Positions 12,015-60,345 of a stretch of DNA of 64,000 nucleotides are shown here, piece after piece. The first letter of the stretch is position 1; the number at the start of each line of letters is the position of its first letter. Below the pieces are notes generated by a model that was given only the letters and a program-made list of their open reading frames with translations, was not told the DNA's origin and made no database searches. Made by a program: the position numbers and the translations under genes. Location of the stretch: positions 4,123,603 through 4,187,602 of the forward strand of contig NC_057756.1 of the NCBI RefSeq assembly GCF_004010195.1. Reading direction: 5' to 3'. The DNA comes from Chiloscyllium plagiosum. Taxonomy: Eukaryota.

Positions 12015-12041
12015 CACGGTCACTTTTGGAGAAGGATAAGG
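12015..12041 (+). CDS. 27-nt phase-1 microexon 2 (ARSLLEKDK)
   Basis: ttatctgtttgcag|CACGGTCACTTTTGGAGAAGGATAAGG|gtaatg; peptide resembles exon 9 (LLEKDK vs LLKKNK). Confidence 0.8.
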
Positions 12042-12499
12042 GTAATGTGCCACATTTAATTCTTCAATGTGTATACATACACACATAAGCACATACAGAC
12101 ACAAACACACATACATATATGTAACAAGACGCAAGTGTAAATGTACTTCACATTACTCTCATCGTGATATTGCTTGTGAAAGTGTCAGGAAACATACAGT
12201 AGTGATGGCAGTTTGTGTGACTGAAGACGATTCCGCAGTGGCATTCTACTGGATTAGTGCTGGGTCTCGAGTTACTTGTGATATTCAGAGATGACACAGA
12301 GTAGAAAGTGGATATGGCAAGAATTAACGAGAAGGGCACGAAGACTCGCTGGTGCTTGACAGTAAGGATGCTGCTGAGATACACAAGATTGGAGCTGATT
12401 GATCAGAGGGGCGTGTGAGTGGCAGATGATATTTGAAGCCATTAAACAGGACTTTGGAAGAAAGGACGGGACAAGGGATAACTCAATGAATAGCAAAAA

Positions 12500-13045
12500 T
12501 CTTGGAATTTCAAAGGAAAAAGTGGACTACTCATGGTGGCAAGACAAGTTAATATGTAATCAAGAAGTATAGGGAATGTTAACTGTGTGAATTGGAGCAT
12601 ATATAACGAAACTCTGGCGGTCACGTTGTCGATATACCGAAATTTGGTAAGGCTTAAATTGGAGTACTGTTGTCCAGTTTAGTCAAAACACAAAAGGAAG
12701 AATGCGTTTATCACTCAAGTTGTGCAAAAGGATATTCAACAGTATGTTGCAAGGAATGGAACGTTTTGCATATGAAGAGAATCTGGATAAAATCGTATTG
12801 TTTTCCTTGGAGCAGGGACAGTGGCCGAGGACACGGTCGAGGTATAGACTATTATGGACCCATGGACAATGTAAATTGAAAGCAGGTTTTCTTGGTTAAA
12901 GTGGAAGTTAAAATGAGACGTGACTTTAAAATTAAACTCAAAGAGTTTTTTGGCTAATTCAAAACAAATCTTTGCTGTCAGAAATTTGTGCAACTATGGT
13001 TGGAGCGGAACACATCACAACATGAATCACGTTTGAGTGTCACAA
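12500..13045 (+). mobile_element. highly degenerate CR1 3' fragment
   Basis: ttggtaaggcttaaattggagtactgttgtccagttt corresponds to the LVRPxLEYCVQF motif. Confidence 0.55.
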
Positions 13046-13049
13046 CATT

Positions 13050-13850
13050 CAGGTCATGCAGGAAACCGCAAAAGATTCAGTACTGAATGCAGTGCAATGT
13101 CGGTCTGAGGCAACATGAAGGCTTCGACAGGTTTGCTTAGAATTTTTAGACAGGTCCACACTCAACAAGACAGCAGATAACCTAATAGAATACATCATTG
13201 CTGTTATAGACGTCATTAGTACATGTTTAGAAGGCTGCATATTGAAGACGTTAATTCAAGTGTTCCCCAAATTGAAACTGTGGAAGAAACAGGTGACCAA
13301 CCCTTACTGAATTCCACCTCTGAGCCGTTCAGATCAGGTAATCCTGACTTATAAAGGAAATCCAGGTCTGATCTTCGTATGGCCATCAGACATGTCAAAA
13401 GGCATACTAAATTGAAACTGAAACCAAGAGCAACCATTCGAATATCCTATGATTGTATCAAGATTTAAAATATATCATAATTTACTATGGACATGCTTGA
13501 CAATACGTTCAGTGCATTCTACGTATGCATTGAACAGATGGACATTGAAACGATGCCCCCTCTCCAAACAACCTCGGATGAATCTGTACCCACGTTAGGT
13601 TGAGAGTGAAGCTGTGAAATGAGAATGAACACGATGGAGTTCTGGGCCGTGTGCTCAGATTCTGTGCAGACCAGTTAGCGGGAGATTTTTGCAGACATTT
13701 AAATTCTTCTTACAACAATCCCATGTCCCCACTTGCTTCTTAAATACAAGCATCATCCCACCACAAAAGAAATGTCATGCAGTGTACCTCATGACTGCCA
13801 CCCGGTGGCCCTGAACTCCACAATTGTGAAGTCCTTTCAGATGTTAGACA
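13050..13850 (+). mobile_element. Rex1/Babar-type LINE fragment
   Basis: remnants of IQVFPKLKLW, FRSGNPDLYRKSRSDLRMAIR, GRVLRFCADQLAG and DCHPVALNSTIVKSF, matching the Rex1 region upstream of RT. Confidence 0.7.
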
Positions 13851-13871
13851 ATTCAAGGTACCTTCGGGCAA

Positions 13872-13990
13872 GGAATCTGAAGAAGGGCTTATGCCTGAAA
13901 CGTCGATTCTCCTGTTCCTTGGATGCTGCGCTTTTGCAGCAACACATTTTCAGCTCTGATCTCCAGCATCTGCGGTCCTCATTTTCATTA
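13872..13990 (+). mobile_element. short Penelope-derived terminal repeat with hammerhead-like core
   Basis: ctgaagaagggcttatgcctgaaacgtcgattctcctg..., same family as 38158-38279, 46317-46422 and 50830. Confidence 0.75.
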
Positions 13991-13994
13991 CGTA

Positions 13995-16660
13995 CATAAT
14001 CCAACTGGGGAAGGGGCCTCATAGGAAAGAGTCACACTGAACATGGGAAATGAGCCCAGCGAGGTGGTTGAAGTTTCAGACGGGGTTATTTTGGGAATAG
14101 TGATGACAATTCCATATGTTTTAGAATACACATGGACAATAACACGTGTAGTTGTGAAGGAAGCGTGCTAACTTGGGGGAAGGCCAACGGTAACACCATC
14201 TGGCAGAAGCTGGAAAATGTCAATTGGGAGCAGCTGTTTGAAGGGAAATCCATATTCTATATTTGGGAGGCTTTCAAAGAAAGGTTGATTTGAGTTCAGG
14301 AGAATTTTGGTGCTGTGAAAATGAGGAATAGAAATTGCAAGATTAGGAAGTTTAGATTAGATTACTTACAGTATGGAAACAGGCCCATCAGCCCAACAAG
14401 TCCACACCGCCCCGCCGAAGCACAACCCACCCATACCCCTACATTTACCCCTTACCTAACACGACGGGCAATTTAGCATGGCCAATTCACCTTACCTGCA
14501 CATCTTTTGGACTGTGGGAAGAAACCGGAGCACCCGGAGGAAACACACGCAGACACGGGGAGAACGTGAAAACTCCACACAGTCAGTCGCCTGAGGCGGG
14601 AATTCAACCCGGGTCTCTGGCGCTGTGAGGCAGCAGTGCTAACCACTGTGCCACTGTGCCGCCCGCACTGAACATGGGAAATGATGGATGGCAGGTGAAA
14701 TTGTGAGGCTAGCGAAGAGGACAAAGGATGCAGACATAAGTCGGGGTGAATGAAGACAGATGAAGCTTTGGAAGAATATTGGGAATGTGGGACCAATCTC
14801 AAACGAGGAATTAACAGGGGTAAATGTGGTTAGGAGATATCCTTCACGAGCAGGGTTAAGTAAAACCTCAAAGTCTTTTTATTTTAATATAAGATGCAAG
14901 GCGGTAAATAGGTAAATGATTGGTTACTCAAGGAGAAAGGAGTAATGATTTGCCTGGTATCAGAGAAAATGGATGAGTACTTTGCAAACGTATTCATGGA
15001 GGATAGGGACATAGCAGACGGTGAAGTTAGGTGTAGATCTTTGGTTACTTGAGGTTAGTCGGCATAAGGAGGGAGGAGGTTTGAGTATTCTAAAAGTCAC
15101 CAAGGTGGACAAGTCCCAAGGTTCGGATGGGATCCATCGCAGGTGGCTGAGGAAAGCGAGAGATAAAATAGCTGGGAATTTACCAAACAGCTTTGCAGCA
15201 TTCTTGAACACGCGGGAGGTCCAAGAGGACTGGAAATGTGCTATTGTTGTCTGCTTGTTTAAGAAGGATAGCAGGAATAATCCACGCAAATAAAGACCAG
15301 TGAGCCTTATGTTAGTGGGAGAGAAGCTACTGGAGATGATACGGAGGGATAGTATATATACCCATTTGGAAGAAAATTGGCTTATCTGTGATTCGCAACA
15401 TGGGTAATATCACGATATACATAAGTGTTAAAATTCGTTAACGTGGTGACAAAGTTGATTGATGAGGGAGGGATGGAGACGTCATGTACATGGACTTTAT
15501 ACGGTTATTTCAAAGGTTTCCCTTTGGTAGGTTGATGAAAATGGTGAAGTCGCATGGGGTCCAGGGTGGTCTACCTAGGTCAATAGAGATGTGGTTGGAC
15601 AATAGAAGACAGTCAGTAGTTTGGAAGTGAGCTTTTCCAAATGGACCCCTGGGACCAGTGGTGTGCCACAGGGTTCCATGCTTTGACAGCTGTTGTTTGT
15701 GATATACTTAAATTATTTGGAGGAAGGTGTAGTTTGCCTCATTAGCAGATAACATTAAGATTGGTAGAGTAGCAGATAGTGAAGGGGATTGTCAGAGAAT
15801 ATAGCTGAGTATAGATAGATTGGAGATTTGGCCAAAGAAATTGCAAATGGAGATCAAACTGGATAAATGTGAGGTGGTGCGTTTGGAAGGTCCAATTCAA
15901 GAGCGAAGTATACGTAAATGGAAATATCGAAAGGAAAATTGGTGAACAGAATGATCTGGATATTGAGGTACATTGTTCCGTGAAGGTGGCAAGCATGTTA
16001 GTAGAGTGGTCAGGAAGGCTGACAAGCATGCTTTCCTTCGTTGGAAGGGATATTGAGTACAAGAGTTGGCAGGTTATGATACAATTGTAAAAGACTTTTG
16101 TTCGGCCACTTTGGCCATTTGGAATACTGTGTACAGTTCTGATCGCCACATCACCAAATTTAAGTGGATGTTTTGGAGAGGTTTCAGAGGACGTACATCA
16201 GGATTTTGCCTGGTATGGAGGGAACGAGCTATGAGGAGAGGTTGAGTGAATTAGGGTTATTTTCATTGAGAAGGAGCTTGAGACGGGACCTGCTTGATGT
16301 ATACAAAATCATAAGAAATTAAGACAGAGTTGATAGCAAGAAACGTTTTTCTTCCCCAGAGTGAAGGACTCACTTACTAAGGACTACGAGTTCAAAGTGA
16401 GAAGGGAAAAGTTTAGGGGAGATATGCGTGGTAAGTTCTTCATGCAGAGGGTGGTGAGTGTCTGGAATACGTTGTCAGCAAAGGTGGCAGTGGCGGGAAT
16501 GATAGCATCGTTTAAGATACGTGTAGACAGATTCATGAATGGGCAGGGAGCAAAGGGATACAGATTCTCAGAAAATAGACGACAGGTTAAGATAAAGGAT
16601 GTGGTTCAGCGCAAATTTGGAGTGCTGAATGGCCTGTTCCTGTGCTGTAATGTTCTTTGT
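13995..16660 (+). mobile_element. degenerate CR1 LINE ORF2 (EN end, RT, 3' end)
   Basis: KVDKSQGSDGIH, EDWKCAIVVCLFKK, SGVPQGS and FFMQRVVSVWN motifs; interrupted by a SINE at 14351-14665. Confidence 0.9.
14351..14665 (-). mobile_element. HE1-like SINE, well preserved
   Basis: reverse complement starts gggcggcacagtggcacagtggttagcactgc; B box ggttgaattcc; (ttaga) tail repeats at 14351. Confidence 0.9.
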
Positions 16661-16689
16661 TTTAGGCGTGGCTAAAAAAAGAAAACTGG

Positions 16690-16959
16690 TTTAGATTACA
16701 TATTGTGTGGACACAGGCTATTCGGCCAAACAAATCTGCATGGAACCTCCAAAGAGTAGCCCACCCATACCCATTGTCCGACTAATGCACCTAACACTCT
16801 ACACGCAATTTTCTTGACCTGCATACATTTGGACTGTTGGAGGAAGCCCAATCAGACATAGACAGAATGTGCAAACTCCACACAGAGAGTTACCCATGGC
16901 TGGAGCTGAACGTGAGCTGTAAGGTAATAGTGCTAACCACTGAGCCTCCGTGCTGCCCT
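16690..16959 (-). mobile_element. HE1-like SINE, degenerate
   Basis: gcaaactccacacag and gtgctaaccactgagcc blocks shared with other copies. Confidence 0.75.
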
Positions 16960-17199
16960 AAAGTGGAGGGAGATCTTAAGACATTTAGATCACGAGGATT
17001 TTTCTGTGGACAGGAGGGATGCTCAAGAAAGAAAGTATGTAGTTAAACCGAAGGGCCACGAGCAGGTGGTTGGAAGGTTTAAAATAAAGTGGCTGGGATG
17101 TGCGAATGGAGCAGCAGTTGAGAACGTTTCCTGGTTGAGGAGAAATTCACATTAAGTTAAATAATTTCTATAGGAAGAACAGATGGTGAATGAACAGTA

Positions 17200-18180
17200 G
17201 AGCGTTTAAGTGTACTTACAAGGAATATAGCTGGTAACACAGAAGAGCTTAGAGCGGCATTAGCACATGCAAATACGATGTACTACCCATAAAAAAAAGC
17301 TTTGCTGAATGAATTGTTCCAGTTTTTGTCTGTTTCAAACCAGGTAGAAACGGATATACCAAGAGTGTGGGAGCTGCATAAATGATGAAAGAGAATTTCA
17401 CAGCTGTACTAAGATAGTACATCTTGGTGGACTACTTTTGTAAGGTCACAGGAGCAGAACTTGTTTTTAAAGTGTAATCACTGTTGGGGTAAGCTAAATG
17501 TGTTCCAAAAATTAGTGGAAGATAGAGGAATCATTATATAAGCGGATCGTGAAAGAATGTAAAAGCATAACTGTTTTAGAAGTGGGAGCTTTTAAGTTCC
17601 ACAACAAGGGATTATTTTCAACAGAATTTGTCAGGCGCATCTAAGTCAGTTCTTGAAAAAAAAAATGTCAATAACCCAAAAACGGAAGAGATTTTCCAGA
17701 CCTGCGACTGGGAAGCGTTTGACCAGTTGATTGAACTTAAACTGGGATCACATTTGGGAATATTGGTCATAAGTCTGTATATTTTAACAAAGTATGGACA
17801 AGGGTTATACTTCTCTGGTGAGAGTTTTAAATCTTGCCAAGGCAATTTATAACAGTAATAGAGAGAAACTGGAGAAATTATGTTGTGACCTGCTTTTCGA
17901 AGGTAAATCCATATCTGAGATTTGGGTGTCATTTTAAGGCAAATCGATCAGACTTCAGGATGAACATGTTGCTGGAAGGATGAGAAGTAAGAAAGTGAAG
18001 ATTACAGAAAATTGAATGACAACAGGTTTTTGAAGTTTCGTCAAAAGGGCAACAGGAAGCACTTGCAACTTCAGCGAACTAAAATCAAGCACATGTGTTA
18101 AAGAATACAAAGGAAGCAAGAGAGATATAAGCAGGAGATTAGGAGATTCAGAAGTGGACACGAAATGCCCTTTTCACATA
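17200..18180 (+). mobile_element. highly degenerate CR1 endonuclease-region fragment
   Basis: remnants resembling the CR1 EN start and the VGDFNFP motif (gtgggagcttttaagttcc). Confidence 0.45.
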
Positions 18181-18282
18181 GGATTCAGGGTGAGGTTTGT
18201 GAAACTAAAATCAAGGTAGACGCTTGAGGAAGGAAAGAAAGCGGAAAAGAAACGAAAGAAAAGAGGAAAACATCCACGTAAT

Positions 18283-18620
18283 TTAGGAGAAAGTGAAGAC
18301 TGCTGGTTCTGCAGATCAGAGTCAAAAAGTGCCATTCTGGAAAATCACAGTCGGTTAGGCAGCGTTGGAAGAGCAGGAGAGACGAAGTTTTGAGCTTAAC
18401 CTCTTCAGCAAGAATGTAGGGGAGGCCCAAGCGTGCTGACAGATAAATGGGAGCGGAGTAGGGCTGTTGAGAGATTACCTGGAAATGTGATAGGTAGATG
18501 GAGGTGCTGTGTGCGTGATGGTGATAGGTCGGAACGAATGGTGGAGCAGATAAGTGGGAAAGAAGATGTGCAGCTACAACAGATCAAGAGGGTGGTGCCA
18601 AATTGAAGCATTAGATGTAA
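18283..18620 (-). mobile_element. Penelope-like 3'/terminal repeat fragment
   Basis: reverse complement matches 29800-29930 and 31455-31650. Confidence 0.7.
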
Positions 18621-19789
18621 GTATCAGCATTTGGAGTTGAGACAGCTGTCCTGAGATTTCAAAGTTTCTTTCCCTCTTCTAATATTCTACATTAACTATT
18701 TGTTCATCTGAGAATGGATAAAGTGGAGGCCATAGTATATAAGTGTATTTGTTAATGAATATTCTAATGGGATATATCTGCTTCTTGTGGTCTGCTTACT
18801 TTAAGTGTGAAAATGTCTTTTTAATAATAAAACTATTTGATAGGTACGAAAATACAGGAACTGATAAGAGACTTTCAACTGTGCTGTAAACTAAGTGCAG
18901 TTATGCACAGACACTCAAAACTCGTGAGAACAAAATTTGCAGGAAATCACCAACGTCTGTCTCTGCCAAATAAAATTAAATATTCAGGATTCCTTCCGTG
19001 TACAGATAATTTCAAGTAAGACACATACTTGGCATAAAGATCTGTGTTTTAAAAAGAAAATCTGGGGTAAATGTTGATTTTCCAGCAGAACTGTGAAGAC
19101 TAATGACTGCGAAGCAAGTACTATGTTAGGAACCGTGTTGAAGATGGCGAGGGCAGATCCAGACTGGCTAGCAGCCAACTCTCTCGAAAAATGACGTTTG
19201 GTGCGAGTTTTCAACTCACAATAGTAAAGGAAAATGGTTGTGATATCTCAAACATGTGTTCTATGCATTTCGGTGTTTAATAAATGAATTGAATTTTCTT
19301 GAGCTACCATTGAATCCGGACTACCCTTATCCTGTCTATATTGTTGCCTCATCGAAACGGGCAACAGATCTTCCCGTTCCTCCGTGGGTGTCACTAACAT
19401 GGACGCACATGCTTTAGGTGGACAAAAGCATTGGAAAAAAAAGCAGCAGTTGCATTTCCAATTAGTTGAGTATCAGAGCAGTAGTCAGAGATGAAATAAC
19501 AGAAGCATCATTCAGTGAGGCTTTGTGGGTGTAGAGAATAAATGTGAATGAAATGGTGACGTCATTGGCATTGGGGTCTTGGCCCCAAATAGTCAAAGGG
19601 AATCAGAGGAATAAACAGGTGGGGAGATTGTGCAGACTAGCAGGAGCATTCGGGCTGTCACACTGGGAATGTAAATTTTTCCAACATAGACTGCCACTGT
19701 CATAATTTTAGGGGCTTAGATAGTTTGGAATTTCTTAAAATGTTCAGGAAAGTTTCGACAAGAAACACAAAAAATGGAGAGGCAAAACC

Positions 19790-21482
19790 TGTAGCACTCG
19801 TTCCCACAACTAGACTCGTACCCACCACTAGAAAACCAAGACATATCCTTTTTGAAAATACTTCAGAAATCATGAGATATGAACAAGGCAGACTTCCAAA
19901 AAAATGAAACTAAATGGATACAATACACCGTGCTTCCACGGATTATCGACAGTACACAAAACAGGACGCACTCCCAGACCAACAGTCTCACTACCTGGAA
20001 CACCAACGTACAGAGTAGCCAAGGAACTCCACGGAAAGCTAAAACACCTCGAAGACGACTCACGCCACTCCATTCACTCCAACCAAGAATTACTGAGCAC
20101 CATCAAAGACACCATTATAGGATAGGATGAAATAATGGTCTGCTTTGACGTGAGAGTCCTGTTCATATCAATTAACATTCACCTGGCTAAACGAACGCTG
20201 AGTGCACTAATAGAAGAACTAAGGACACAAACACCAGCCAGCGCCAATTCTATCAGCAAAGTTAACACTGTCAAGGTAGCAGAGCTGTGCCTCACCACCT
20301 ACTTCACGTTCATAAACAAGACCGACAAAAAAATCAATGGAACTCAGCTGGGATGACGAATATCAGGGTATTTTGCATAAGTAATAATGCAGGGACAAGT
20401 AGCCCGACTAACAATACAAGTTAACTTTGGGTCCGCGACATGCATGACACCTTTATAATCAAAAAGCAGAACAAATTATAGGAAACCTGCAACAGCATCA
20501 AGAATATCTTGACTGGCATGAAATTGACAAAGCAGGTGGAGAAAGACCATAGGTTTCCATTCCTACATGTGACAGTAGAACGAAGAGTTAATGCAAATCT
20601 TCAAACTAGCATCTACAGGAAGAAAGAACACAAACCAAACAAATACCTAACTATATAAGCAATCATCCCAACACCTATAAATGGAGCTGCATCAGGACAT
20701 TGTTTGAACGATTCACAACACACCGTATCACCCAAAAACTACGTATAGCAGCAGAAAAATACCTATACAGCGTATTCAAGAACAATGATTATCCAGTAAA
20801 CACCGTCCAACAATTCCTCATCAACAAACCCAAACAAGCTGACACAAAGCGCCCAGAAACGCTAGCGACATTACTTTACATCAAATTCATCTCTGAAATG
20901 ACTTCCAGATTACTCAGACCACATGGCATTTAATAGATCTCAGTGCTACCAACACACGGAAACAGCGACTAATGAACCTAATGAATGTCAAAAACAACCA
21001 ACAAAGCGCAAATCATGTCCAAAATAACATGCAAATCTGTATCAAGCGGTACATCGGAAAAACAGGCAGGACAACCGCCATCAGGATAGATGCACGCCAA
21101 CTAGCCAACAGAAGACATGAATCACTGTCACTAGTATTCTTACATACAGACGAAGAAGGACAATACTTTGACATCCAACCAAGGACGTGCTAAACAAGGA
21201 CATGCTCGAGAATTCCGAGAGGCGTGGCATTCCAAACGGAACTCCATCAATAAAGACATTTATTTGAAGCCCATCTACCACCCTCTAAGGAAACAAACCG
21301 GAAATAACATCACCAAACTTAGGAAACCAAGATGTATAAATAGAAGCAGGGCATAGCACCAGCACTTCACCGGAAGGTCAGTGATGATGTTACCTAGTAT
21401 GATGACGAAACATGTTGAAACGAACCTTCATGCTCAGCAAACAAACTTGCATTCAGAACCTCAATCGGAGCTATAAATCTCA
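19790..21482 (+). mobile_element. Penelope-like element (Poseidon-like), RT plus GIY-YIG, degenerate
   Basis: TPTYRVAKEL, MVCFDVRVLFISI and YIGKTGR motifs; 3' end has a degenerate hammerhead-like gtgatgatgttacc...gacgaaac (~21381-21411). Confidence 0.85.
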
Positions 21483-21747
21483 GCAGTCCCTAACACTTGA
21501 CATGATCTTGGGAAATACGGCAGGATTGGTGACTGAGGTAACAGTGTTAAAGTACATTGGGAGCAAAGACCATAGACCATGGTTTCGAAATAGTTATACA
21601 GGTGAATAAGACTGTTCCGTCATTTCAAGTTCTAAAATAGGGAAAGACGAACCTTGATGGAATTAGGCATGAGCTTACACGCTTTGACTGGAATAGTTTG
21701 TTTGCAGGAAAAGGGACTGCAAGCAAGAGGAAGGTCTTTAAGAGTGA

Positions 21748-21978
21748 ACAAAATTAAAAATCACACAACACCAGGTTATAGTCCAACAGGTTTAATTGGA
21801 AGCACACCAGCTTTCTGAGCGACGCTCCTTCATCGGGTGATTGCCACAATCACCTGATGAAGGAGCGTCGCTCCGAAAGCTAGCGTGCTACCAATTAAAC
21901 CTGTTGGACTATAACCTGGTGTTGTGTGATTTTTAACTTTGTACACCCCAGTCCAACACCGGCATCTCCGAATCATGA
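21748..21978. mobile_element. palindromic short element with inverted hammerhead-like cores, probably Penelope-derived
   Basis: arms of about 100 bp centred on 21845; CTGATGAaGGAGCgtcGCTCCGAAAgcta at 21854-21882; flanked by tctttaagagtga and tcttgaaaagtga. Confidence 0.8.
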
Positions 21979-24239
21979 TCTTGAAAAGTGAGATAGCTAA
22001 AGTTCAAGGTTTTTGTTTTCCTGTAAGGGTGAATGACATGGTTGGCAGGAAGAGAGAATCATCAATGGCACGTGTTATTGATGCTTTGACCAGAAAAAGA
22101 AAGGAGGCATAGTTCTGCCGCAGGCAACAGGGATCAAGGGAATCCTTGAATGTGTATCGGCAATATAACATAAGGAAATCAGGAGGGCGAAAAGTTGGAA
22201 CGATATACGCTAGGCTGTGAAAATTAAGGTGAAACCAAAGAGGCTGTCTCAGTATATTAAAGGAAAAATAATAACCGGAGAGAGAATAGGACGATAGTGG
22301 TCATGTATGTGTGGAATCGAAAGGGATGATATTTTTACAAAGAAGAAATACATTAGACTTGCGAACTTGGGCAATTCATGGTGATATTTTGGGGACAGCC
22401 TGTATCACAGTAGCAAGAGGTGTTGGACATATTAGTATATATGTATGTTGATAAATCTCCTGGTCCTGACCCGATATACTCAAGAGTACTGAAAGAGACG
22501 AAACAAGAATTTGCGGTGGTGCTGGCTGATACTTTTGCATCATCGTTAGCCACGGTGAGATCCCCGAATATCAGAGGGTATTGAAAGTTGTGCCTTTATT
22601 CAAAATGGGCTGCAAAGTATAACAATTTCCGCCACAAACAGTGACCTGCTACGGGTAAGTTAGTTCAGAATATTTTGAGATACAAGTATTTGGAAAGATA
22701 GGGTTTAGTGAGGTGAATTCAGAATAGCTTCGTGCGTGGCAGATTACACCTCACAAATGTCTGTGATGAAGTGTGCAGAATGATTGGTGAGGACAGGGCA
22801 GTCGGTATGGATGTCACTAAGGCCTTTGGTAGGCTATTCTGTAAGCTTGCATCACATGGAATCGAGGTGAAGCTGACAAATTGACTTGATGGTTGGAAGC
22901 ATAGAATAATGATGGAAGGATGCTAGTCGGACTAGAGTCATGTGACTACTGGAGTGCCTCAGGGGCGGTCAAGATCCCATTGCTGGTTGTTATCAATATC
23001 AATGACTTTAATGAGAATGTACAAGGCATTGCGCATAAGTTTGCAAATGGCGCATAAATCAGCGATATCTTGGGCTCTGAGGAAGGTACAATTGCAAAAA
23101 TTGCAAAAGGATCTTGATCAGCTGAGGAGGTAGACTGAGAAATGAAAATAGAGTTTCATATAGGCATGTGTGAGGGCTTGCATTCTGGAAAGTCAAATCA
23201 AGATAGGGGTTTCATGTAGTATGGTAGTGATTTAAGAAGTGTCACTTAACAGACAGAAATTGAAATTCAGGTGCACGCTTCTCTGAAAGTGGAGTCACAA
23301 GCAGTCAGGGCAGTGAAAATGACATTTGGCACACTGGCTTTCATCAGTCAGTGCATTTACGATAGAATTTGGAAGTTATGTTGGAGTTCTAAAGGACGTT
23401 GGTAAGGTCGCACTTACATTATCGATTTCAGTTATGGACAACTTGCAATAGGAAGAATGGTCTTAAAGTAGAATTCGTGCAAATAAGGTTATCAGTGTTT
23501 TGCAGGAATCCATGGTCTGAATTCTTGGGAAGGGTTGGAAAAGCTAAGGGATATTTTACAGCATAGCGGACTAAAGGGGATATTACAGAATTCTAGGGTG
23601 AATGCATTCAAGGTTGGGGTATGGAGAGTGAGAAAACATCAGTTTAAGGTTAGAGAAGAAAGAATAAAAGGGAACCGGAATAGCAATTGTTTTGCACAGC
23701 TGGTCCTTCAGCCAGAGGATTAGTTGACTGTGGAACCTGTTATGGAGGTTACATTAAACGCATTTCAAAGGCATTTGGACAAATACACGGATAGGAAACG
23801 TTTAGAAGGATGTGGGCTACGTGCAGGAAGATGGAGTTAGCACGGGTGGATATTTTGGTCAGCATGGACCAGTTGGGTCGAATGACCTGCCTCCATGTTA
23901 TGGGACTTTATGAATCTGACTATTGAATGAAACTTATATTTGATCATTGAATATTGCAAGAATCACTGTTCTGGTGTTGGTCTCAGGTTGCAGGTTCAAT
24001 CAAAAAAGCACGTACGTTCGGAGACGGTGGTGGAGGCGTTTCAATATTTTGAGGAGGCACACTAAATGTCTATTTTATAAGTTTTTGAATATTTAACATA
24101 ATTTAAAGTAATTTTACTTTGCTTTGCATCGCTTGTTTTAAAATCACTCACGTTAAAATGTTATCTCCAACTTTTCTTTTGTAGAGCGTTATGAAAAAGC
24201 TTTACATTTCTCAATTCTATCCCATTACTTGCTGTTCAG

Positions 24240-24275
24240 AAATACGCAACTTAAATGAAGCACTGAGGAATTCCG
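24240..24275 (+). CDS. 36-nt phase-1 microexon 3 (EIRNLNEALRNS)
   Basis: ttacttgctgttcag|AAATACGC...GGAATTCCG|gtacgt; same length and hydrophobic pattern as exon 7. Confidence 0.8.
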
Positions 24276-25172: not shown

Positions 25173-25199
25173 AGCAAAAGCTGCATCAATACAAGGAAG
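25173..25199 (+). CDS. 27-nt phase-1 microexon 4 (EQKLHQYKE)
   Basis: aatgtttaatag|AGCAAAAGCTGCATCAATACAAGGAAG|gtaaga; strong donor. Confidence 0.8.
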
Positions 25200-25794: not shown

Positions 25795-25821
25795 AACTAA
25801 ATGAGTGCTCAAAAAGTGATG
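25795..25821 (+). CDS. 27-nt phase-1 microexon 5 (ELNECSKSD)
   Basis: long CT tract ...ctctctcttcacag|AACTAAATGAGTGCTCAAAAAGTGATG|gtgagt; near-consensus sites. Confidence 0.85.
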
Positions 25822-26810: not shown

Positions 26811-26837
26811 ATGAAAGACTGCAACAAGCAAAATCAG
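26811..26837 (+). CDS. 27-nt phase-1 microexon 6 (DERLQQAKS)
   Basis: tgtgtacatcag|ATGAAAGACTGCAACAAGCAAAATCAG|gtaaag. Confidence 0.8.
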
Positions 26838-27409
26838 GTAAAGAAAGAAAAATAAAATAGTTGCACACAAGTTTCAAAATTATTGTTATTGGAAAGAAAG
26901 CATTGCAACTGCATGTTTTGTTTGGGTAACACCTAACAAGACATTCGTCAGAATGTAAAAGTGTTTATATTCATGCTCTGCCACCCTCTCCTCTCAGGAC
27001 ACGGAATCCTATCAATCTGTTCATGAACTGTCATTTATCTGTACATCCTAAATTACACTTTAATTGAAAATTTTGTTGGAACAACTTGCATTCTTGAGTG
27101 TGAGGTAGGGGATCAGACCTACAGAGATATAGAGAAAGAGAAATTGTGGGAGACTCTGATTAGTATTCATACACTGCTCATGTAACTGCACAGAAGTGTG
27201 CGAATATATGCATAAAGGTCCAAAGACAGGCACAGGCACACTCACAGACACACAAACACACACACACAAACATTCACACATCTGTTTGTCTCTCACTGTA
27301 CGTTTCCCATATAGGTAATGCTAATTTATGCTGATACTATGCATTTTTATCATAAATAATTGTTGAGAGACAGGTCCGAGCAGTCTACTCTGAAAGAATA
27401 AAGTATTTT

Positions 27410-49160: not shown

Positions 49161-49694
49161 TGTTGCTCTACCAAATTTTCGGAGTTTATGCGGTGGAGAC
49201 CATCGTCGACCACATCAGAGGGGAAATTGTGGTCTTTGAAGAAGGAGGCCATTCGGGTTGTTCGGTAGATTTGAATTCACTGGAAAAAATAAGCCAAAGA
49301 CAGCATAGCTTTGTCAAAGGAGTAGCATCGGCGCAGAATTCAAGCTGGCTATTGATGCAAGTAATGTAGGCATTGGTGCTAAACTCTTACAAGAAGACGA
49401 AGAGCAGATAGAAAGACGCATTGGTATTTATTTCCAAAACAAAATCACGTAAAGATATAATCCACTTTTGAGAAGGAAACTTTTGGTATTAATGTTACAA
49501 CATTTCAATATCTATATTTGCAGCAACGTGTCTGAGCCAATTGTAAGCACTAAACAGAGCAGGACAATCGAACATAATGAGCAGCACAATGTAACAGCTT
49601 GGATGAAGAAAGCTGGAGGCATTCAGTGGCAGGAGCAGTTCAACTGAAGTAGACTGCAGTGATGATGATGTGCATGCTGAGAATCAATGTAATG

Positions 49695-50868: not shown

Positions 50869-51175
50869 AGTAAAATCTAATAACTTATTTTGAGAATAAT
50901 CAATGAAGTGGCTTTGAAGTTGTTCTATCCATTTACTCCAAGTAATGGTTTGTATCTTGATTTAGCAGACAGTTCTATCAATGGCAAATTACTGGTTAAA
51001 TGCATGTGTGCACCCACCTTCATATACAACCATATATAATTTTGTTGATTGGCATATCCAACTCATCATTCACAGAGATAAATGTCTCCGTAAACTTCAT
51101 TACACGATAATTTTGTAAGTTTTTAAATTTTCTGTGTGACTGCATCATGTTGAAATTTAAAGTACTCAAGTTAAT

Positions 51176-51376
51176 TCTGAGATGCTGGTGTTGGAAACGG
51201 GTGTACAAAGTTAAAAATCACACATCACCATCTTATTGTCCAACACGTTTAATTGGAATGACTAGCTTTCGAAGTGCTGCTCCTTCACAACAACCTAACG
51301 AAGCAGCTGCCATCCGATGCTAATGCTTCCAATTATACCTGGAGGATTATAACCTGATGTTGTGTGATTTTTAACT
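51176..51376. mobile_element. diverged second copy of the 21748-21978 palindromic element
   Basis: gttaaaaatcacac...gtgtgatttttaac inverted arms. Confidence 0.75.
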
Positions 51377-52212
51377 CAATTTAATTCAAATTTTGTTTCT
51401 CTTATTGTCGTTGGCATCGACGACTTCATCATATATTTTCACCAGCTTTTGTTCAAATGGTTTCAGTATCCATTTCACAGCTATTATCCTCTCATCTTAG
51501 TTTGTAACTTCAGGAGCAACCTTTAGGAAATTAGTCGAGTTTCTGAATCCTTGATAACAACTTCAGCCGTAGGCATAGATTCACTAAGAATCTGCCAAGC
51601 AAATTTCACAACTGGGAAAAGGAATTTTTTGCAGTTCTCCATCACATCCTGCATCAAGTATTCTGGGCACATTAACTCAATCATGCAGTGTGAGCGAGTC
51701 TGGAGAGACGCTTTCTTATTTTTCGTAACCTCGACCTGATTTTCTCTAGTCAACCAGCATTCCCTATTCGCAGCAGCCTTTCCTTTTACCCCAACAGGAA
51801 TATTGTATACTGTCTCTGGACCACATTTATCTCATTTTACAATGATAAAGGTTGCATTCTCTCAAAATGGAAACTCCCCAATTCCTCCATCTCGTGAAAC
51901 TGGAAACTGCCACTTGAGAATAATGAAAAAATAAAGAGTATTCCAAACGAATGCTTTGATGAGGTGAGCTCTGGTCAGTCATTTAGATCCGTAGGTTACC
52001 ACTTGCACAGAGAATGCTTTCTACCAAAGCAGCACCAGGTCAGTGTCAGACACACAGACAGAATGGGCAAATAGTTTCAGATCTGAACTCACATCACCTA
52101 GCCGAGGTATCGGAAGCTGTGTTCACCTATTCTGGTAAAGATCTCCAAAGTTATGTCATCAAGATCGGCCCAATAGTGCGATATAAAAAAAATCCATTAT
52201 TCAAAATTGCAT

Positions 52213-52420
52213 TCCTTCAGGATACACAACCTTTTCTCAGTCCCATCCTGCAGGTTCAACAAACCAATCTCGGTCCCATCCTTCAGGATACACAACCCAT
52301 TGTTGGTCCAAACCTAAAGATTCTATGAATCCCACTACCTCTATCCTCCTGCAGGATCCATGTCCCTTCCTACATTTCTACCTTCCTCCAGGTTTTGCAT
52401 CCCTTCCTACCTTGGCAAAA
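52213..52420. repeat. degenerate 33-bp minisatellite
   Basis: tccttcaggatacacaaccttttctcagtccca / tcctgcaggttcaacaaaccaatctcggtccca / tccttcaggatacacaacccattgttggtccaa, then decayed units. Confidence 0.8.
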
Positions 52421-52729
52421 TGGCCCAGACTCTAAAACTCTTCTTCCCCTGCATTGTTCGACAGAAGGGCATTGGAGGGTGGCGGGGCTTACAGAGATAA
52501 GGAGGGATATCAGAACGGGAGGGTTATGCAGCTTTTAGGTATATCGTAGTGGCAAAAAAGAAACTTCGGTAATTTTGAGGGTCCATTCTAATAAATGAGG
52601 TAACAGAGCTAAGGAGGAGTGTAGCCACTGGAAGAGATTTCACAGTTTTTCAGTTACAGGGACTTGAGCAAGTTACTAAAATAGGGAAGGTTTAAGATTG
52701 AAGGATTTTGCAGAAACTCTTTACAGGGT

Positions 52730-53625
52730 TAAAGACAGGATTCTTGCGTTGTGTGGAGTTACAGAAAACTTTCGTGGTCCACGTCCACAGATCCCACAAA
52801 GTTGCTACCTAAGTTGATAGTGGTGTTAAGAAGGTATATGATGTTTTGGCTTTCATTAGCAGGGACATTGAGTTTAAGAGCCGTGAGGTTATGCTGCTGC
52901 TCTGTAGAGCCCTGGTTAGACCACATTTGGAATGTTATGTTCAGTTCTGGTTGCCTCATTACATGAAAGATGTGAAGGCTTAGCAGAGGGTGCAGAGATT
53001 TTTCAGGATGCTGTCTGTACTGGTGGGCACGTCGAATGAAGAAAGGTCAGGTGAGCCAGGGCTTTTCATCAGGTTTTATTAGGTTTCATTCCCTACAGTG
53101 TGGAAACAGGCCCTTCTGCCCAGCAAGTGCAGAACACCAACCCTCCAAAGAGTAGCCCACCTAGACCTATTCACCGTAACCAATGCACCTACTTCTATGG
53201 GAAACTTAGCAATACCAATTAACCTTACCTTCACAACTTTGGACTGTGGGAGGAAACCCACATAGACACAGGAAGAATGTGCAAACTCCACACAGACTGG
53301 AGGCTGGAATCGACCCCGGGTCCCTGGCGCTGTGAGGCAGCAGGGATAACCGCTGAGCCACCATGCCACCCCATTTTCTCATTGGAATGTAAAAGGAAGT
53401 GAGGTGACCTGATTGAGGTGTACGAGTTGATGAGCGCATGCATAGAGTGGATGGCCCAATAAGTTTCCCATTGTGAAAATGGCTATAACGAGGGAGCATA
53501 ATTTAAAGGTAATTGGCGGAAGGGTCAAGGAGATATCAGAGGTAGATTCTATGCACAGAGACTAGTGGGTGAGGGAATGCATTGCCAGCGTTAGTGCAAG
53601 TTTCAGATACATTACGGGCATTCAT
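52730..53625 (+). mobile_element. CR1 3' fragment with an antisense HE1-like SINE at 53078-53371
   Basis: ctggttagaccacatttggaa (LVRPHLE); the CR1 resumes after the SINE at ttttctcattgga. Confidence 0.85.
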
Positions 53626-54329
53626 AAATCCACAGCTTGGGTTCTGCGAGGCACACTGAGGTCCTGATCTCATTTTGTCTTTCATTCAAGCGTGCACAAA
53701 CAAGCAAATCCCAGAGCTAAGATGTGAATGACAGCATTTGACATCAAGGTCATGTTATCTTGATGAAGCAAATCCTGAGGTAATAGTTATCAGGGCCAAA
53801 ACATTCTCATAGTTGGAGCCATATTCAGAAACATAAGTAGGTTAGTTACCTCAACTTTAAGACATCTCTGCAATCGAACTGTTTTTACATGTATGAGACC
53901 CACATTTCGTCTGTTGCTTTAAAACTGACTTTAATTTAAAAACGGATTTAACTAAAAGGTCAAAGGTGAAGATGGTTAACAAATATTGCAAGTGTTGAAT
54001 GCAATTTGTGACCTTTGACACGAAAGCAGCTCATGTGCAACAATATCAATACCCAAATATATTCCGGCAGTGGTTTCAAAATTGTGAAATCACAATCGTC
54101 CTACACACGGGCCAGGTAAAAGCTATTTCCAACATCAGTGAATCAACACATTGCAAATACTTATTTAATTGTGTCATCCTCACAAAATCGCAAACTATCA
54201 AAAGTCTATATGTTAACTATTGTTCAGAAGTTGAACTGGAGAATCGATATCAACAGAGTGTCTGTGAGAGCAATCCGGAATCAATGAATTGTGCAGTATA
54301 TTAGTAATCCCTTCTTTCTGCAAAGCTTA

Positions 54330-54870
54330 TCCAACATGTATCAGGCGTAAATCAGGAGCATATTGGAATGCTGCCAATTAGCCTCAGTGAGTGAAGTTCC
54401 AAGATCACTCAAAAATCTTAACAATATCCAGGATTGGCAAGGCATCTATGTACATCCAATCTTTCCAGTACTGAAGCGCAGTGGCAGCAGTGTATACCAT
54501 CTGCACAGTGTACAGCAGAAATTCGGCTTGGCTCAGCTGTAAGGATCTTCTGAACAAACAATTAATTCAAACTAGAAAGTCAATTCGACCTGATATAAGC
54601 GAAAACCATCACTTGCATGTTATCCTCGTGGCACTTATCATATTTACTGTGAAATACCTGACAGGTCCTTCTGCGTCAAAGTTTTGGAACTTACCCTCAC
54701 GCCCTCCCACTGCCTCCACCTTCACCGCACTAGGGAACTATCTACAGAACAGCAACTACAGGGATTGAAGGAGACAGTTCACGACACATTCTCAGGGGAA
54801 TCTAGGAAAAAGCCGACATGTTTGTGCAGCCAGCATCTTCGAGAACCCATCAGTGAAAACATGATTAAAT
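54330..54870 (+). mobile_element. probable L2-type LINE 3' fragment
   Basis: gcgcagtggcagcagtgtataccatct and tcaaagttttggaacttaccctc resemble L2-type 3' ends; from recall only. Confidence 0.4.
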
Positions 54871-56174
54871 AAGTAAACACATAGTATAAATGATGTGAGC
54901 AAAAGTGTGCAAAATGTTATGGATTAGCCATGTTGCATTCAACACAAATACAGGTATCATGATGAATTAAAAATAGTCTTATTGAGGTCGTGTGTTCTCT
55001 TGTTTTTGACTAAAATATTTTAATTTGACAAGAATATAAATGCAGACACTAAAGTTCACCATAAAGCATGCAATCTGATTGAATTGAATTGAGTAGACGT
55101 TGTAGTTACTATTCTGTCAATATGTCTTTACTGTTGACCAGAAAAACGGTGGTTACTTTGTCCTTAATTGCAAAATGACGTATGTGCACTTAAAATGCCT
55201 TTTTGATGGCAGATGTTGTTGTCCTGCTTTTGAGACACGAATTTCACGTCCAATTCGTTTATAGGCCTTGATGATTTACGAAAACGCCCCCATTACAAAG
55301 TGAAATAGAATAATTTGCTCCTTCCAAGTCTTTAAGTATCATCTCATGGTAGGTGGTGGCAGTTTTAGTCATTCAAAACCGTCGATTTTCGAGCATTAGC
55401 ATTCATACCTCACTAACTACAAACAAGTGTAAATGTTAAAGTTCGCCAAGCAACACCACATTGAGGAACTGTGCCGAAACACTTTGGTTGTATGCTGCAT
55501 TAATTAGCTGAACACCAATTATATAAAATTGTTGCCAACACGATATTATACTGCATATGCCTGCAGTGATTTCTGAAACTGATATTTTATTGAATTTATA
55601 ATCAATATTAGGATATTGCAGATTGGTCCCACTGACAGAAACATAGAGAAAATAAAGCGAAGTTTTTTATTCGTGGAACAGCAAATAGGAGTCGATTTGC
55701 ATTTTGAATTAAATATTTCTGTACATTGAGGACCTAAATGAAGTATGAACAAACTCATGTGCACTTCAATAATGTGAGTCCTGATAAATACAAAACAGAT
55801 ATGTCCACAGATTTTAACACCAGAGACTGGTAATATCGGGTGTAGAATGTTATTCTATGCTTTATCTGGAATCGAATGGAGACCATGACTCTTAATTATT
55901 GCGCAAATGTGCAATACATTTTGTCAAAGTTAACAATATTTTATCGTTAAACATGCCTGAAGTAATGTTCTTCACAAAATAAAACCGGGAGACGGATGAA
56001 CATCAAGGGCAGTTGAATGGAATGACCGACTAACGTGTGAATTAATTGCAGAATTGGTCGAAAAAATCTGTTCAATCTGCTTTTGTTTCTTTGTCTGATA
56101 CAATCATAGTTCTTCACTATGAAGTAAATGTGGCTACGATCGATAAGTAACATTTTATGTAATCATCTTATTAG

Positions 56175-56210
56175 ATCTGAATAAGCTCCGAGAAGATCTA
56201 AGAAATAAAG
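56175..56210 (+). CDS. 36-nt phase-1 microexon 7 (DLNKLREDLRNK)
   Basis: aatcatcttattag|ATCTGAATAAGCTCCGAGAAGATCTAAGAAATAAAG|gtgaaa; resembles exon 3 (shared L..E.LRN pattern). Confidence 0.8.
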
Positions 56211-56598
56211 GTGAAAGACATTTCAGTGTTATTCATTCTGCAGTGGATTTTTTTAAATGGCATATATTATACGTGAAGTACAGAATTATCCATTAATTAA
56301 TTCCAAATAAAGAATGCATATTGAGCAGAATGAGCCTTTATTTCAAGTGACATATTTCATTTTTAATGAGAATATTTTTCATTCATAATTTTGTGAAAAA
56401 CCTGAGAACTCAGTTCTTTATCCAGCTGAATTTTTATTCAAGCCAACAAGCCATGATCTGCATATCAACAACATATCGTTACAATAGAGAAATTGTCAAG
56501 TAAAGTTTTGCCAGAGCCTCTTTATTTATTGAAATGCAACTTTTTTTCTCTCATCTGTGCGATAAGAAGACAATATTTCTCACATAATTTATTTTATA

Positions 56599-59275
56599 AC
56601 ATAGAACATAGAACATTACAGCGCAGTACATGCCCTTCGGCCCTCTATGTTGCGCATAACTGTCATACCAATCTGAAGCCCATCTAAACTATACCATTCC
56701 ATGTACTTGTCCATATGCTTGTCCAATGACGACTTAAATGTACTAAAAGTTGGCGAATCTAGTACCGTTGCAGGCAAAACATTCCATACCCTTACTACTC
56801 TCTGACTAAAGAAACTACCTCTGACATCTGTCCTATATCTATCACCCCTCAATTTAAAGCTATGCCCCCTCGTGCTCGACGTCACTATTCTTGGAAAAAG
56901 GCTCTCCCTGTCCACCCTATCTAACCCTCTGTTTATCTTATATGTCTCTATTAAATCACCTCTCAACCTTCTTCTCTCTGACGAAAACAGCCTCAAGTCC
57001 TCAGCCTTTCCTCATAAGACGTTCGCTCCATACCAGGCAAAATCCTAGTAAATCTCTTCTGCACCATTTCCAAAGCTTCCGCATCCTTCTTATAATGTGA
57101 TGACCTGAAATGTACACAATACACCAAATGCAGCCGCACTAGAGTTTTGTACAGCTGTAGCATTACCTCATGTTTCCGGAACCCGATCCCTCTATGAATA
57201 AAAGCTAAAACATTGTATGCATTCTTAACAACCCTGTCAACCTGAGTGGCAACTTTGAAGGATTTGAATACCTGGGCAACGAGATGTCTCTGCTCATCTA
57301 CACTACCAAGAATCTTACCATTAGCCCAGTACTTTGCATTCCGGTTACTCTGACCAAAGTGAATCACCTCACACTTGTCCGCATTAAACTCCATTTGCCA
57401 CCTCTCAGCCCAGCTCTGCAGCTTATCTATGTCTCTCTGTAACCAACAACATCGTTCGTCATTATCCACGACTCCACCAACCTTAGTGTCATCTGCAAAT
57501 TTATTAACTCACCCTTCTACGCCCTCATCCAGGTCATTTATAAAATGATGAACAGCAGTGGACCCAACACCGACCCTTGTAGTACAGCACTGGTAACTGG
57601 ACTCCAGGATGAACATTTCCCATCAACACCACCCTCTGTCTTCTTTCAATAAGCCATTTACTGATCCAAACTGCTATATCTCCTAAAATCCCATTTTGTA
57701 CAACAGCCTACTTTGGGGAACCTTATCGAACGCCTTGCTGAAATCCATATACACCATATCAACCGGTTTGCTCTCATCTACCTGTGTTGTCGCCTTCTCA
57801 AAGAACTCAATACGTTTTGTGAGGCACGACCTACCCTTCACAAAACCGTGCTGACTATCCCTAATCAAATTATTATTTTCTAGAGGATTATAAATCCTAT
57901 CTCTTATAACCTTTTCCAACATTTTTCCAAAAACTGAAGTGAGGTTCACTGATCTATAATTACCAGGATTGTCTCTATTCCCCTTCTTGAACAGGGGAAC
58001 TACATTTGCTATCCCCCAGTCTTCTCCCACTATTCCTGTAGACAGTGACGATTTAAAGATCAATGCCAAAGGCTCGACAATCTTCTCCCTGGCTTCCCAG
58101 AGGATCCTAGGATAAATCTCATCCGGCCCGAGGGACTTATCTATTTTCAGACTCTGCAGGATTTCTAATACCTCTTCCTTGTGAAGCTCAATCACACCTC
58201 TTCCAGTAGCTTGTATCTCAGTAATCTCCTCGACATCATTGTCGCTTTCTAGAGTGAACACTGTTGACAAATATTCATTTAGTGCTTCCCCTATCTCCTC
58301 TGACTCCACACAAACTTCCCAATACTATCCTTGATTGGCCCTAATCTTACTCTCGTCATTCTTGTATTCCTTAAATACCTATAGAAAGCCTTAGTGTTTA
58401 CCATGATCCTATCCGATAACAACTTCTCAAGTCTCCTCCTGGCTCTTCTAAGCTCTCTCTTTAGGTCTTTCCTGGCTACCTTGTAACCCTTTAGCGCCAG
58501 AACTGAGCGTTCAAATCTCATCCTAACATAAGCCTTCTTCTTCCTCTTGACCAGAGATTCCACTTCCTTCGTAAACCACGGCTCCCGTGCACTACAGCTG
58601 CCTCCCTGCCTGACAGTTACATACTTATCAAGGACACACAGTAGCTTTTCCTTGAATAAGCTCCACATTTCTAATGTGCTTATCCCCTGCAGTTTCCTTC
58701 TCCATCCTATGCTTCTTAAATCTTGCTTAATCGCATCGTAATTGTCTTTCCCCCAGCTGTAACTCTTGCCCAGTGGTATACACCTATCCCTTTCTATCAT
58801 TAAAGCAAACATAACAGAATTGTGATCGCTATCACCAAAGAGCTCACCTACTTGCAAGTCTAACACCTAGTCTGGCTCATTACCCAGTACCAAATCTAAT
58901 GTGGCTTCGCCCCTTGTGGGGCCTGTCTACATACTGTGTCAGGAGGCTCTCCTGCACACACTGGACAAAAACTGACCTATCTATAGTACTCGTACTATAG
59001 TGTTCCCAGTCAATATTTGGAGAGTTGAAGTCCCCCAGGTCAACTATCCTGTCTCTCTCACTCCGATCGAGAAATATCTTTCCTATCCTTTCCTCTTCAT
59101 CTCTGGAACTATTCGGAGGCCTTTAGAAAACTCCCAACACGGTGATCTCTCCTTTCCTGTTTCTAACTTCAGCCCATACTACCTCAGTTGACGAGTCCCC
59201 AAACATCCTTTCTGCAACTGTAATACTGTCCTTTACGAACAATGCCACACCTCCCCCAGTTTTACCATCTCCTCT
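56599..59275 (-). mobile_element. CR1 LINE ORF2 (EN to 3' tail) with few disablements
   Basis: FGDSDHNS, EPWFTKEV, QHGFVKGRSCLT, YMDFSKAFDKVP and RRLRGDLIETYK; tail acatagaacatagaaca is the reverse complement of (ttctatg)n. Confidence 0.95.
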
Positions 59276-60318
59276 CCTTTACCATCTTTTCATTGTGGAT
59301 TTGCCTCACCGCAAAGATGTCCTGTGTCTATGCAGTGTTTTTTTTGAGCCTGAGGAATTTTTAAAGTTTTTTTTCAGATATTGTAAATTTGAACCTAAAA
59401 TGAATACAGATGAAAAGTCACATCTAATAGATAGTTCACAATGATGGCGCTCAAACTGCCATGATTATCCTTTGATTATGTGAAGTAGAAAGAAATCAAT
59501 CAATTGTCCAGCGCACTGAAGGGGAGGCTACTTTACGATCGATTGCAATGAAACGCCTAACGTTTGTGGAGATATCATATTTTGTTCAGCAAATTTGTTT
59601 GCTTCTCTGTATCTACGTTTGTGGTGATTATAATCTTCATCACTGCTGTTTATTGTAGCAGTTAATTATCACTGCACTGGGTATGCCATAGCTTTTATCT
59701 GTCATCACAACGGGAACAATCAAAATAACATGTTATCTATGTCTATCTGCATCAGCGAAGATTCAATGCGTTTTAACAAAATATTTAAATATTCAAAGTG
59801 GATAAAATTAAATCAACTTCAAACTATATTATTGTCACTTGCTGGATAGGTGTTGTCACTGTGATGTGATCGATAGACCAGTAATTCATTGACCAAGATA
59901 ATATTCTGAGAAGACACGTTTTGATTCGTGCCAAAGCAGGCGGTAGAAGTTTAATTCCATTTTATGAAAAAAACGTCTAATTCTTCCAATTTCATCACTG
60001 CCGGTTAACAGAAGAGAGAGAGAAAAGGATCACTTATCGACTTCAGCGAAGGAACTTGCCCTAATTAGTCTGAGGAAGTTGTGACTCCAGACCAAAAACA
60101 ATGTGGTCTTCTCTGAAATGCTGACTGCGCAATAAGGAATGAGCAAATAATTCAGAAATGGACAGTGATGTCCGAATTCTGGATTAAAAAAAAAACAATT
60201 ATAACAGTTGAATAAAGAGGGTGACATTTTTTGCATTTATTTCAACAATAGAACATCGCTAACGTTAGAAAATTCACTGTCTTGAAAATAACTTATTCGT
60301 ACATATCATGCTTTTCAG

Positions 60319-60345
60319 ATGAGGAGCTAAACCGTTGTGACACTG
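60319..60345 (+). CDS. 27-nt phase-1 microexon 8 (DEELNRCDT)
   Basis: catgcttttcag|ATGAGGAGCTAAACCGTTGTGACACTG|gtaaat. Confidence 0.85.

Follow-up and report, generated by a model that had tools for sequence, protein, structure and literature searches.

Phase-1 micro-exons at a Chiloscyllium plagiosum locus as apparent parts of a very large cartilaginous-fish gene for a coiled-coil B30.2/SPRY protein

A 64,000-nucleotide stretch of the Chiloscyllium plagiosum genome (assembly GCF_004010195.1, contig NC_057756.1, positions 4,123,603 to 4,187,602; hereafter the window) contains ten short exon-like segments whose spliced product follows a heptad register. To what kind of gene do these segments belong, and does the product lie inside or outside the cell? 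An initial annotation of the window had proposed an extracellular stalk resembling tetherin or the neck of a lectin. The reading favoured here, with moderate confidence, is that the segments are mid-gene exons of one very large cartilaginous-fish gene, in which phase-1 micro-exons of 21, 27 and 36 nucleotides (nt) would specify a coiled-coil rod, segmented and at least 1,500 residues long, that ends in a B30.2/SPRY domain and is probably intracellular. The window's contig is referred to as C47 (window, C47:4123603-4187602), and the numbering of the window is continued beyond its two ends for all positions that lie outside it.

All ten segments lie on the plus strand, are preceded by AG and followed by GT, and are phase 1-1; eight are 27 nt and two are 36 nt long (Table 1). 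Splicing by coordinates with a script gives a stop-free peptide of 96 amino acids, in which the 24 residues previously named at heptad positions a and d all stand where they had been placed. Three of the exons (1, 9 and 10) fall outside the span 12015-60345 considered at that stage. Exon 1 has AAG as its acceptor, was not retained by the trained exon profile and was added by hand to the exon set used in the register tests; its best match among same-length exons is exon 10 (rank 1 of 71). An extra candidate at 23366-23401 was dropped; it lowers the register score and introduces another break. Directly upstream of the window is a 1.2-kb run of N (-1177 to 0), which could conceal an exon. The repeats in the window are ones that we take to be a shark-type short interspersed element and the CR1 long interspersed element.

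The sequence examined comprised 1.0 Mb upstream and 0.54 Mb downstream of the window, 1.6 Mb in total. On this evidence the whole window likely sits inside the host gene, which would extend past both of its ends as the array called unit B. At one threshold, 135 exon calls fall on the plus strand and five on the minus strand, and the union set holds 184. The second codon position is the most conserved, both in 27-nt exons (0.475 vs 0.358 and 0.322) and in 36-nt exons (0.535 vs 0.350 and 0.302). The array introns are up to 41 kb long, and several assembly gaps lie within the region. The array leads to a B30.2/SPRY exon that is single copy in the 1.6 Mb, keeps its frame open over its full length and is followed by a stop codon. 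The domain contains no cysteine, and its best solved relatives are TRIM58, TRIM21, pyrin and BTN3A1.

Micro-exons also extend upstream of -844 k, where pattern searches detect 21-nt exons at C47 2.30-2.73 Mb. A homologue of the unit B start module lies at about C47 2.237 Mb (85% identity over 52 nt), and a second array, unit A, starts there. The layout is therefore a start module, a 21-nt array and a 27/36-nt array, present twice and followed by the SPRY exon. The sequence examined covers part of unit A, and SPRY searches found no SPRY exon of its own, C47 2.31-3.12 Mb lying outside that sequence. A 1.7-kb assembly gap occurs at -794 k. A CpG-rich stretch at C47 2.232 Mb was considered as a promoter and rejected, as it looks like a mobile-element insertion instead.

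The order of the exons was compared with shuffled orders using a break-penalised register score. The window scores 34.9 (two breaks), against 24.0 +/- 5.1 for the shuffles, and 1.5% of 5,000 shuffles reach this value, that is, the real order beats about 98.5% of them. Two other penalties gave 1.8% and 2.2%, and shuffling the 27-nt exons alone gave 1.4%. The best single-register window taken by itself is not significant, being reached by 13-25% of shuffles. The effect of order within the window is real but modest. In the 27/36-nt part of the array (121 exons) the effect has z = 7.0 and is reached by 0 of 300 shuffles. In the 21-nt part z = 1.0, which is expected because each 21-nt exon is one heptad. 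The exon order is thus non-random both in the window and in the 27/36-nt part, as the initial annotation had held. Position a is mostly leucine, and d is leucine, lysine, cysteine or alanine. Given such a design of the array, survival of the register over one long intron is to be expected.

The pairing of a 36-nt with a 27-nt exon, which had been seen to equal exactly three heptads, is the basic module of the array as a whole: two 36-nt exons are neighbours three times vs 14 expected, and none of 2,000 shuffles gives so low a number. Charged residues at g and e form 42 attractive vs 27 repulsive pairs in the 27/36-nt part, which 1% of shuffles reach, and in the 21-nt part g has a net charge of -39 in 45 and e of +12 in 44. 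From the g to e+5 charge pairs, the chains are predicted to pair in parallel. Such a rod would measure about 230 nm if fully extended, and may be a scaffold or spacer by which B30.2 domains are offered in pairs to a target, much like the combination of coiled coil and B30.2 in TRIMs and butyrophilin tails. Exon-block duplication and cassette splicing could alter its length with frame and register kept, because the exons are all phase 1-1 and come in 7- or 21-residue modules.

The exon order had also been proposed to be complete between exons 6 and 7, and this holds up. Every candidate in the 29,337-nt intron between them scores below the 5th percentile of true exons and does not exceed the opposite-strand control; those at 49397, 34889 and 54228 were rejected on both counts. 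The same adjacency of exon types recurs in two other blocks of the array, where the introns are 1.3 and 4.8 kb long.

Growth of the gene by duplication of exon blocks is borne out array-wide and fails for the blocks that were first named. Similar exons form 48 diagonal runs along the array, vs 16.9 in 40 shuffles; the longest run (six exons) is equalled by shuffles. Exons 2-5 are not a copy of exons 6-9, since similarity is confined to exons 3 and 7 and the repeating block begins at exons 1 and 10 instead of 2 and 6. The introns around the two groups share one 37-bp match (E 0.086) and do not align otherwise. Elsewhere, two identical 27-nt exons with identical flanks (296402 and 321189) flank assembly gaps and a CpG-rich repeat, and are either a recent tandem duplication or an assembly artefact.

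Cysteines occupy d positions across the array, as was noted for the window. With cysteine scored neutrally, this applies to 14/14 in the 21-nt part and 21/29 in the 27/36-nt part, or 35/43 together, whereas random placement puts at most 9/14 and 13/29 three residues after a hydrophobic residue (2,000 trials). The accompanying idea, that segments end in such a cysteine, is true of both complete segments in the window and is not a rule of the array. Here, the heptad continues after 10/14 cysteines in the 21-nt part and 15/21 in the 27/36-nt part (25/35 in total), compared with 22/46 for leucine, so cysteine was rejected as a general segment terminator. These counts come from an i+4 test, used in place of a break-distance test that is biased by the neutral scoring of cysteine. 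Exons 5 and 8, which carry the two segment-end cysteines, show no homology to each other, their match ranking 69 of 71 among same-length exons. The d-position cysteines would be core-packing residues that face the partner chain and are normally reduced; they could be cross-linked on oxidation, or acylated. They are probably not a sign of secretion. Close to the 3' end, at 443970-443993, is a 24-nt cysteine-bearing exon that two paralogues and a catshark model also possess in corresponding form.

Table 1. Predicted features of the locus, in window numbering
Feature	Position	Strand	Description
Unit B array	-843,766 to +452,086	+	about 167 phase-1 micro-exons, about 1,560 amino acids, over 1.3 Mb
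Unit B start module	array 5' edge (about -844 k)	+	27+36-nt exons
Unit B 21-nt exons	about -783 k to -325 k	+	
Unit B mostly alternating 27/36-nt exons	from about -293 k	+	
Exon 1	8819-8845	+	27 nt, phase 1; residues 1-9; block-start type; least secure
Exon 2	12015-12041	+	27 nt, phase 1
Exon 3	24240-24275	+	36 nt, phase 1
Exon 4	25173-25199	+	27 nt, phase 1; with exon 3 one three-heptad module
Exon 5	25795-25821	+	27 nt, phase 1; d-position cysteine, then polar register break
Exon 6	26811-26837	+	27 nt, phase 1
Intron, exons 6 to 7	26838-56174	+	29,337 nt; 51% occurs at least twice elsewhere in the 1.6 Mb examined
Exon 7	56175-56210	+	36 nt, phase 1
Exon 8	60319-60345	+	27 nt, phase 1; d-position cysteine
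Exon 9	60464-60490	+	27 nt, phase 1
Exon 10	61498-61524	+	27 nt, phase 1; next exon block begins here
Terminal B30.2/SPRY exon	+453,897 to +454,417	+	172 amino acids, Pfam E 4e-18

The array is not the only one of its kind. Four paralogous SPRY exons (35-62% identity), two on C47 and two on contig C37, are each preceded by the same 27/36-nt array, and 30 of the 34 genome-wide matches to the 27-nt pattern lie on these two contigs. Paralogous micro-exon arrays lie at C47 0.52-1.00 Mb (plus strand), C47 1.30-1.74 Mb (minus) and C37 20.06-22.32 Mb (minus). The matches at C37 20.06 Mb, on the minus strand and below the 20.72-Mb SPRY, suggest that the family has a sixth member, for which no SPRY was found.

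In other cartilaginous fishes, the same SPRY is found in RefSeq models from skate, catshark, electric ray and chimaera, which bear automatic TRIM-like names and group in the same SPRY clade (XP_038668997.1, XP_055510696.1, XP_042191567.1, XP_069775385.1 and XP_038672308.1). Unlike the array, these models are 200-460 amino acids long and capture at most its last part. Pfam scans of the five find SPRY as the sole domain, with no RING, B-box or PRY match. The spliced 3' end aligns with the catshark model at 37% over 278 columns and with the skate model at 33% over 290; three successive predicted exons abut exactly in the catshark model, and the 3' exon order is shared. Isoforms of the relatives differ by internal insertions or deletions of 9, 6, 9, 9, and 7 plus 9 amino acids.

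A quick tree built from 62 SPRY domains places the ten rows of the family on one side of a long branch (SH-aLRT, an approximate likelihood-ratio support value, 100), apart from 12 immunoglobulin (Ig)-linked and 25 TRIM rows, and does not group them with the B30.2 domains of butyrophilins. According to this tree, the SPRY appears to form a cartilaginous-fish clade of its own, separate from butyrophilins and TRIMs, and the gene under study belongs to it, its SPRY being preceded by the 27/36-nt array. Protein searches for full-length relatives returned one unrelated TRIM and one short fragment, with none among proteins of 806-2,300 amino acids; these are weak negatives. The family is undescribed in the open literature searched, supplements being outside its scope.

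On which side of the membrane does the rod lie? Heptad tails of butyrophilin and BG proteins are cytoplasmic, chicken BG tails have conserved and clustered cysteines, and a BG-derived tail also exists as a soluble cytoplasmic 'zipper protein', according to passages of PMC4046983 and PMC5938342; that the chicken BG cytoplasmic tails carry cysteines is given in the latter. A cytosolic rod appears likelier than an extracellular stalk because both B30.2 and cysteine-bearing heptad tails are cytoplasmic in these proteins.

The stalk proposed for the window is not supported. The last micro-exon is followed by SPRY and a stop codon, and not by a glycosylphosphatidylinositol (GPI) tail or lectin domain. 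N-glycosylation sequons are not enriched (3 vs 5.2 expected, and 0 vs 1.1). The rod model is without a membrane-length hydrophobic stretch (maximum 19-residue hydropathy 0.66), and the models of the five relatives reach at most 1.48. Scans of the regions upstream of the two start modules found no exon for Ig, RING, a signal or a transmembrane segment above the level of the control strand; the transmembrane candidates there are at that level and are not common to units A and B. Motif scans of the examined flanks gave no RING or B-box match. A hydrophobic stretch near -877,900 was not accepted as an exon.

Several observations weigh against the intracellular gene model favoured here. The scans did not find the 5' end, so that the gene may have a signal peptide or type II anchor further upstream. 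In the skate model, a hydrophobic stretch stands at the very start (10-residue hydropathy 3.26). The bowfin gene model MBN3300211.1 (P0073) combines a membrane helix at the N-terminus with PRY-SPRY and a coiled coil that is repeated and rich in glycosylation sites (nine sequons); either it is a fused model or, possibly, a type II membrane protein whose B30.2 is extracellular, and if correct it sets a precedent for a B30.2 that faces outwards. Cysteine at d is very strongly selected (35/43), which resembles disulfide-linked extracellular stalks. The exon calls are predictions, some missed and some false, and the number of 167 was reached after ten doubtful ones were removed by eye. About 28 register segments remain in the 27/36-nt part, the g-e pairing of the 21-nt part lacks significance, being reached by 22% of shuffles, and the SPRY tree is a quick version with a midpoint root. 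Finally, no transcript was seen: two single-cell runs, read to about 2% and about 6%, gave no reads on the terminal exon, and in one of them none was placed at all. At the 3' end of the gene, a raw-read run gave repeat-derived reads only and another run none, and these data are no test of expression.

The alternative that survives best, unlikely in our judgement, is an extracellular or secreted disulfide-linked stalk or fibre, in which a signal peptide or type II anchor that escaped detection places rod and B30.2 outside the cell and d-position cysteines cross-link the parallel chains. Secreted B30.2 proteins exist, as in the snake vespryns. The placement of cysteines three residues after a hydrophobic residue, far above random, speaks for such a product, as do the cysteine-bearing 24-nt exon of this gene and two paralogues and the order of domains in the bowfin model. 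A signal-peptide-like frame is also present near -845,445, 1.7 kb upstream of the unit B start module; however, it was rejected, as its phase-2 donor is unfit for a phase-1 array, unit A has no counterpart and the control strand has similar candidates. Against the stalk stand also the sequon counts, a SPRY domain that lacks cysteine and ends the array, and the catshark, ray and chimaera models, which start without a signal or membrane helix, although they may be 5'-incomplete. The bowfin SPRY falls outside the cartilaginous-fish clade in the quick tree.

Tetherin/BST-2, as outlined in part of PMC3235769, has a type II transmembrane segment, a GPI anchor, N-glycans, three cysteines and about 110 extracellular residues. 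Like it, the shark rod is predicted to be a parallel coiled coil with cysteines placed so as to link two chains; unlike it, the gene has neither anchor that could be found and its C-terminus is SPRY. Likewise, the domain after the last micro-exon is not the C-type lectin domain that follows a lectin neck.

A butyrophilin- or BG-type type I receptor is improbable as well. Here, Ig and transmembrane exons would lie further upstream and the array would be a hugely extended cytoplasmic tail. The exon grammar favours it: genuine shark butyrophilin-like genes on contigs C37 and C3 have IgC, a transmembrane segment (seen in 2/4), a few 27-nt phase-1 exons and B30.2, and the array shares with them both the phase-1 27-nt heptad exons and the single-exon B30.2 that follows. 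Moreover, two of the paralogues are on the contig with the most butyrophilin-type IgC exons. Chicken BG genes, in the passages seen of PMC4046983 and PMC5938342, similarly build a coiled-coil tail from numerous very short symmetric exons (21 nt, with some of 18 or 24), with heptads running across the junctions, cysteines in the tail and a variable exon number; the 21-nt exons are given in PMC4046983. BG proteins, as described there, have IgV and a transmembrane segment, 13-38 repeats and no B30.2, whereas the shark gene has some 167 or more exons, three-heptad 27/36-nt modules, a terminal SPRY and no Ig or transmembrane exon found. Butyrophilins have few heptad exons with IgV/IgC and a transmembrane segment in front, and their B30.2 domains lie outside the cartilaginous-fish clade, which is separate from all 12 Ig-linked rows. 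When 96 candidates were scored with Pfam C2-set_3 (butyrophilin IgC2), none of the 37 matches was on C47, and neither the roughly 125 kb upstream of unit A nor the stretch scanned upstream of unit B yielded an Ig motif or a convincing transmembrane exon. The exon grammar is common to the array and butyrophilins; membership among them was not shown.

The preferred reading, a cytosolic coiled-coil rod capped by B30.2, has other partial counterparts. Class IV TRIMs (RING, B-box, coiled coil, B30.2) likewise combine a coiled coil with a C-terminal B30.2, and TRIM58 and TRIM21, with pyrin, are among the solved relatives. They differ in that RING and B-box are missing from the five relatives' models and the examined flanks, and in that the rod is about 10 times longer, encoded by micro-exons, apparently parallel and attached to a SPRY of a separate clade. 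Enterophilins consist of an extended leucine zipper and B30.2, and the array is like them in having a long heptad rod with a terminal B30.2, a likeness of architecture alone. Enterophilin-1/SNX1 is mentioned in a portion of PMC13749957. The ESM Atlas holds chordate clusters with a long coiled coil and PRY/SPRY (1,277-1,802 amino acids, scores 0.81-0.91), which serve as leads only; they mostly carry a Pfam PRY match, unlike the cartilaginous-fish clade. The parts of the design, heptad exons as in BG and butyrophilins and B30.2, are already known; its scale, the 27+36 module and the separate clade are new.

How long the gene is depends on unit A: it could be about 1.3 Mb, or 2.3 Mb if units A and B splice together. 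A bolder version, which we hold improbable, joins both units into one transcription unit of about 2.3 Mb that consists almost entirely of some 250-300 micro-exons. Its rod of more than 2,500 residues would be cross-linked through core cysteines into a B30.2-capped covalent fibre or tether, with length set by register-preserving cassette splicing, and would be a polymer with a structural or immune role that cartilaginous fishes alone possess. The weakest alternative, that the segments are real and partly decayed, as a pseudogene or unspliced remnant of a once-coding array, could draw on the lack of RNA reads on the terminal exon (in the small fraction of runs read), on unit A without a SPRY found and on the long introns and assembly gaps, yet is very improbable given that splice sites, lengths, frame and register have all been preserved while no alignable similarity is left between the introns, that the SPRY frame is open over 172 amino acids and that other species have related models, some with splice isoforms.

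Other features lie in or around the array. Retrovirus-like fragments with pol- and env-like frames occur within or near it, at about -898 k to -892 k, -790 k to -788 k and C47 2.167 Mb. Just downstream of the SPRY exon are two related, diverging 96-nt phase-1 transmembrane exons that are 65% identical, at 534578-534673 (plus strand) and 480735-480640 (minus strand), and Ig-like open frames on the minus strand near 486,500 and 567,800. These probably belong to neighbouring Ig-superfamily genes.

If expressed as modelled, the array represents an unstudied gene family common to sharks, rays and chimaeras. It would take the heptad-exon design of butyrophilins and BG to an extreme, with well over 100 micro-exons across more than 1 Mb, of which the public models found cover the last 200-460 residues only. 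A 2.3-Mb unit, if true, would rank among the longest vertebrate genes. The locus would also be a natural test of how the spliceosome orders very many exons of 21-36 nt separated by introns of up to 41 kb, and of how the heptad register constrains exon duplication, and the array-wide cysteines at d make a redox-switchable or cross-linked rod directly testable.

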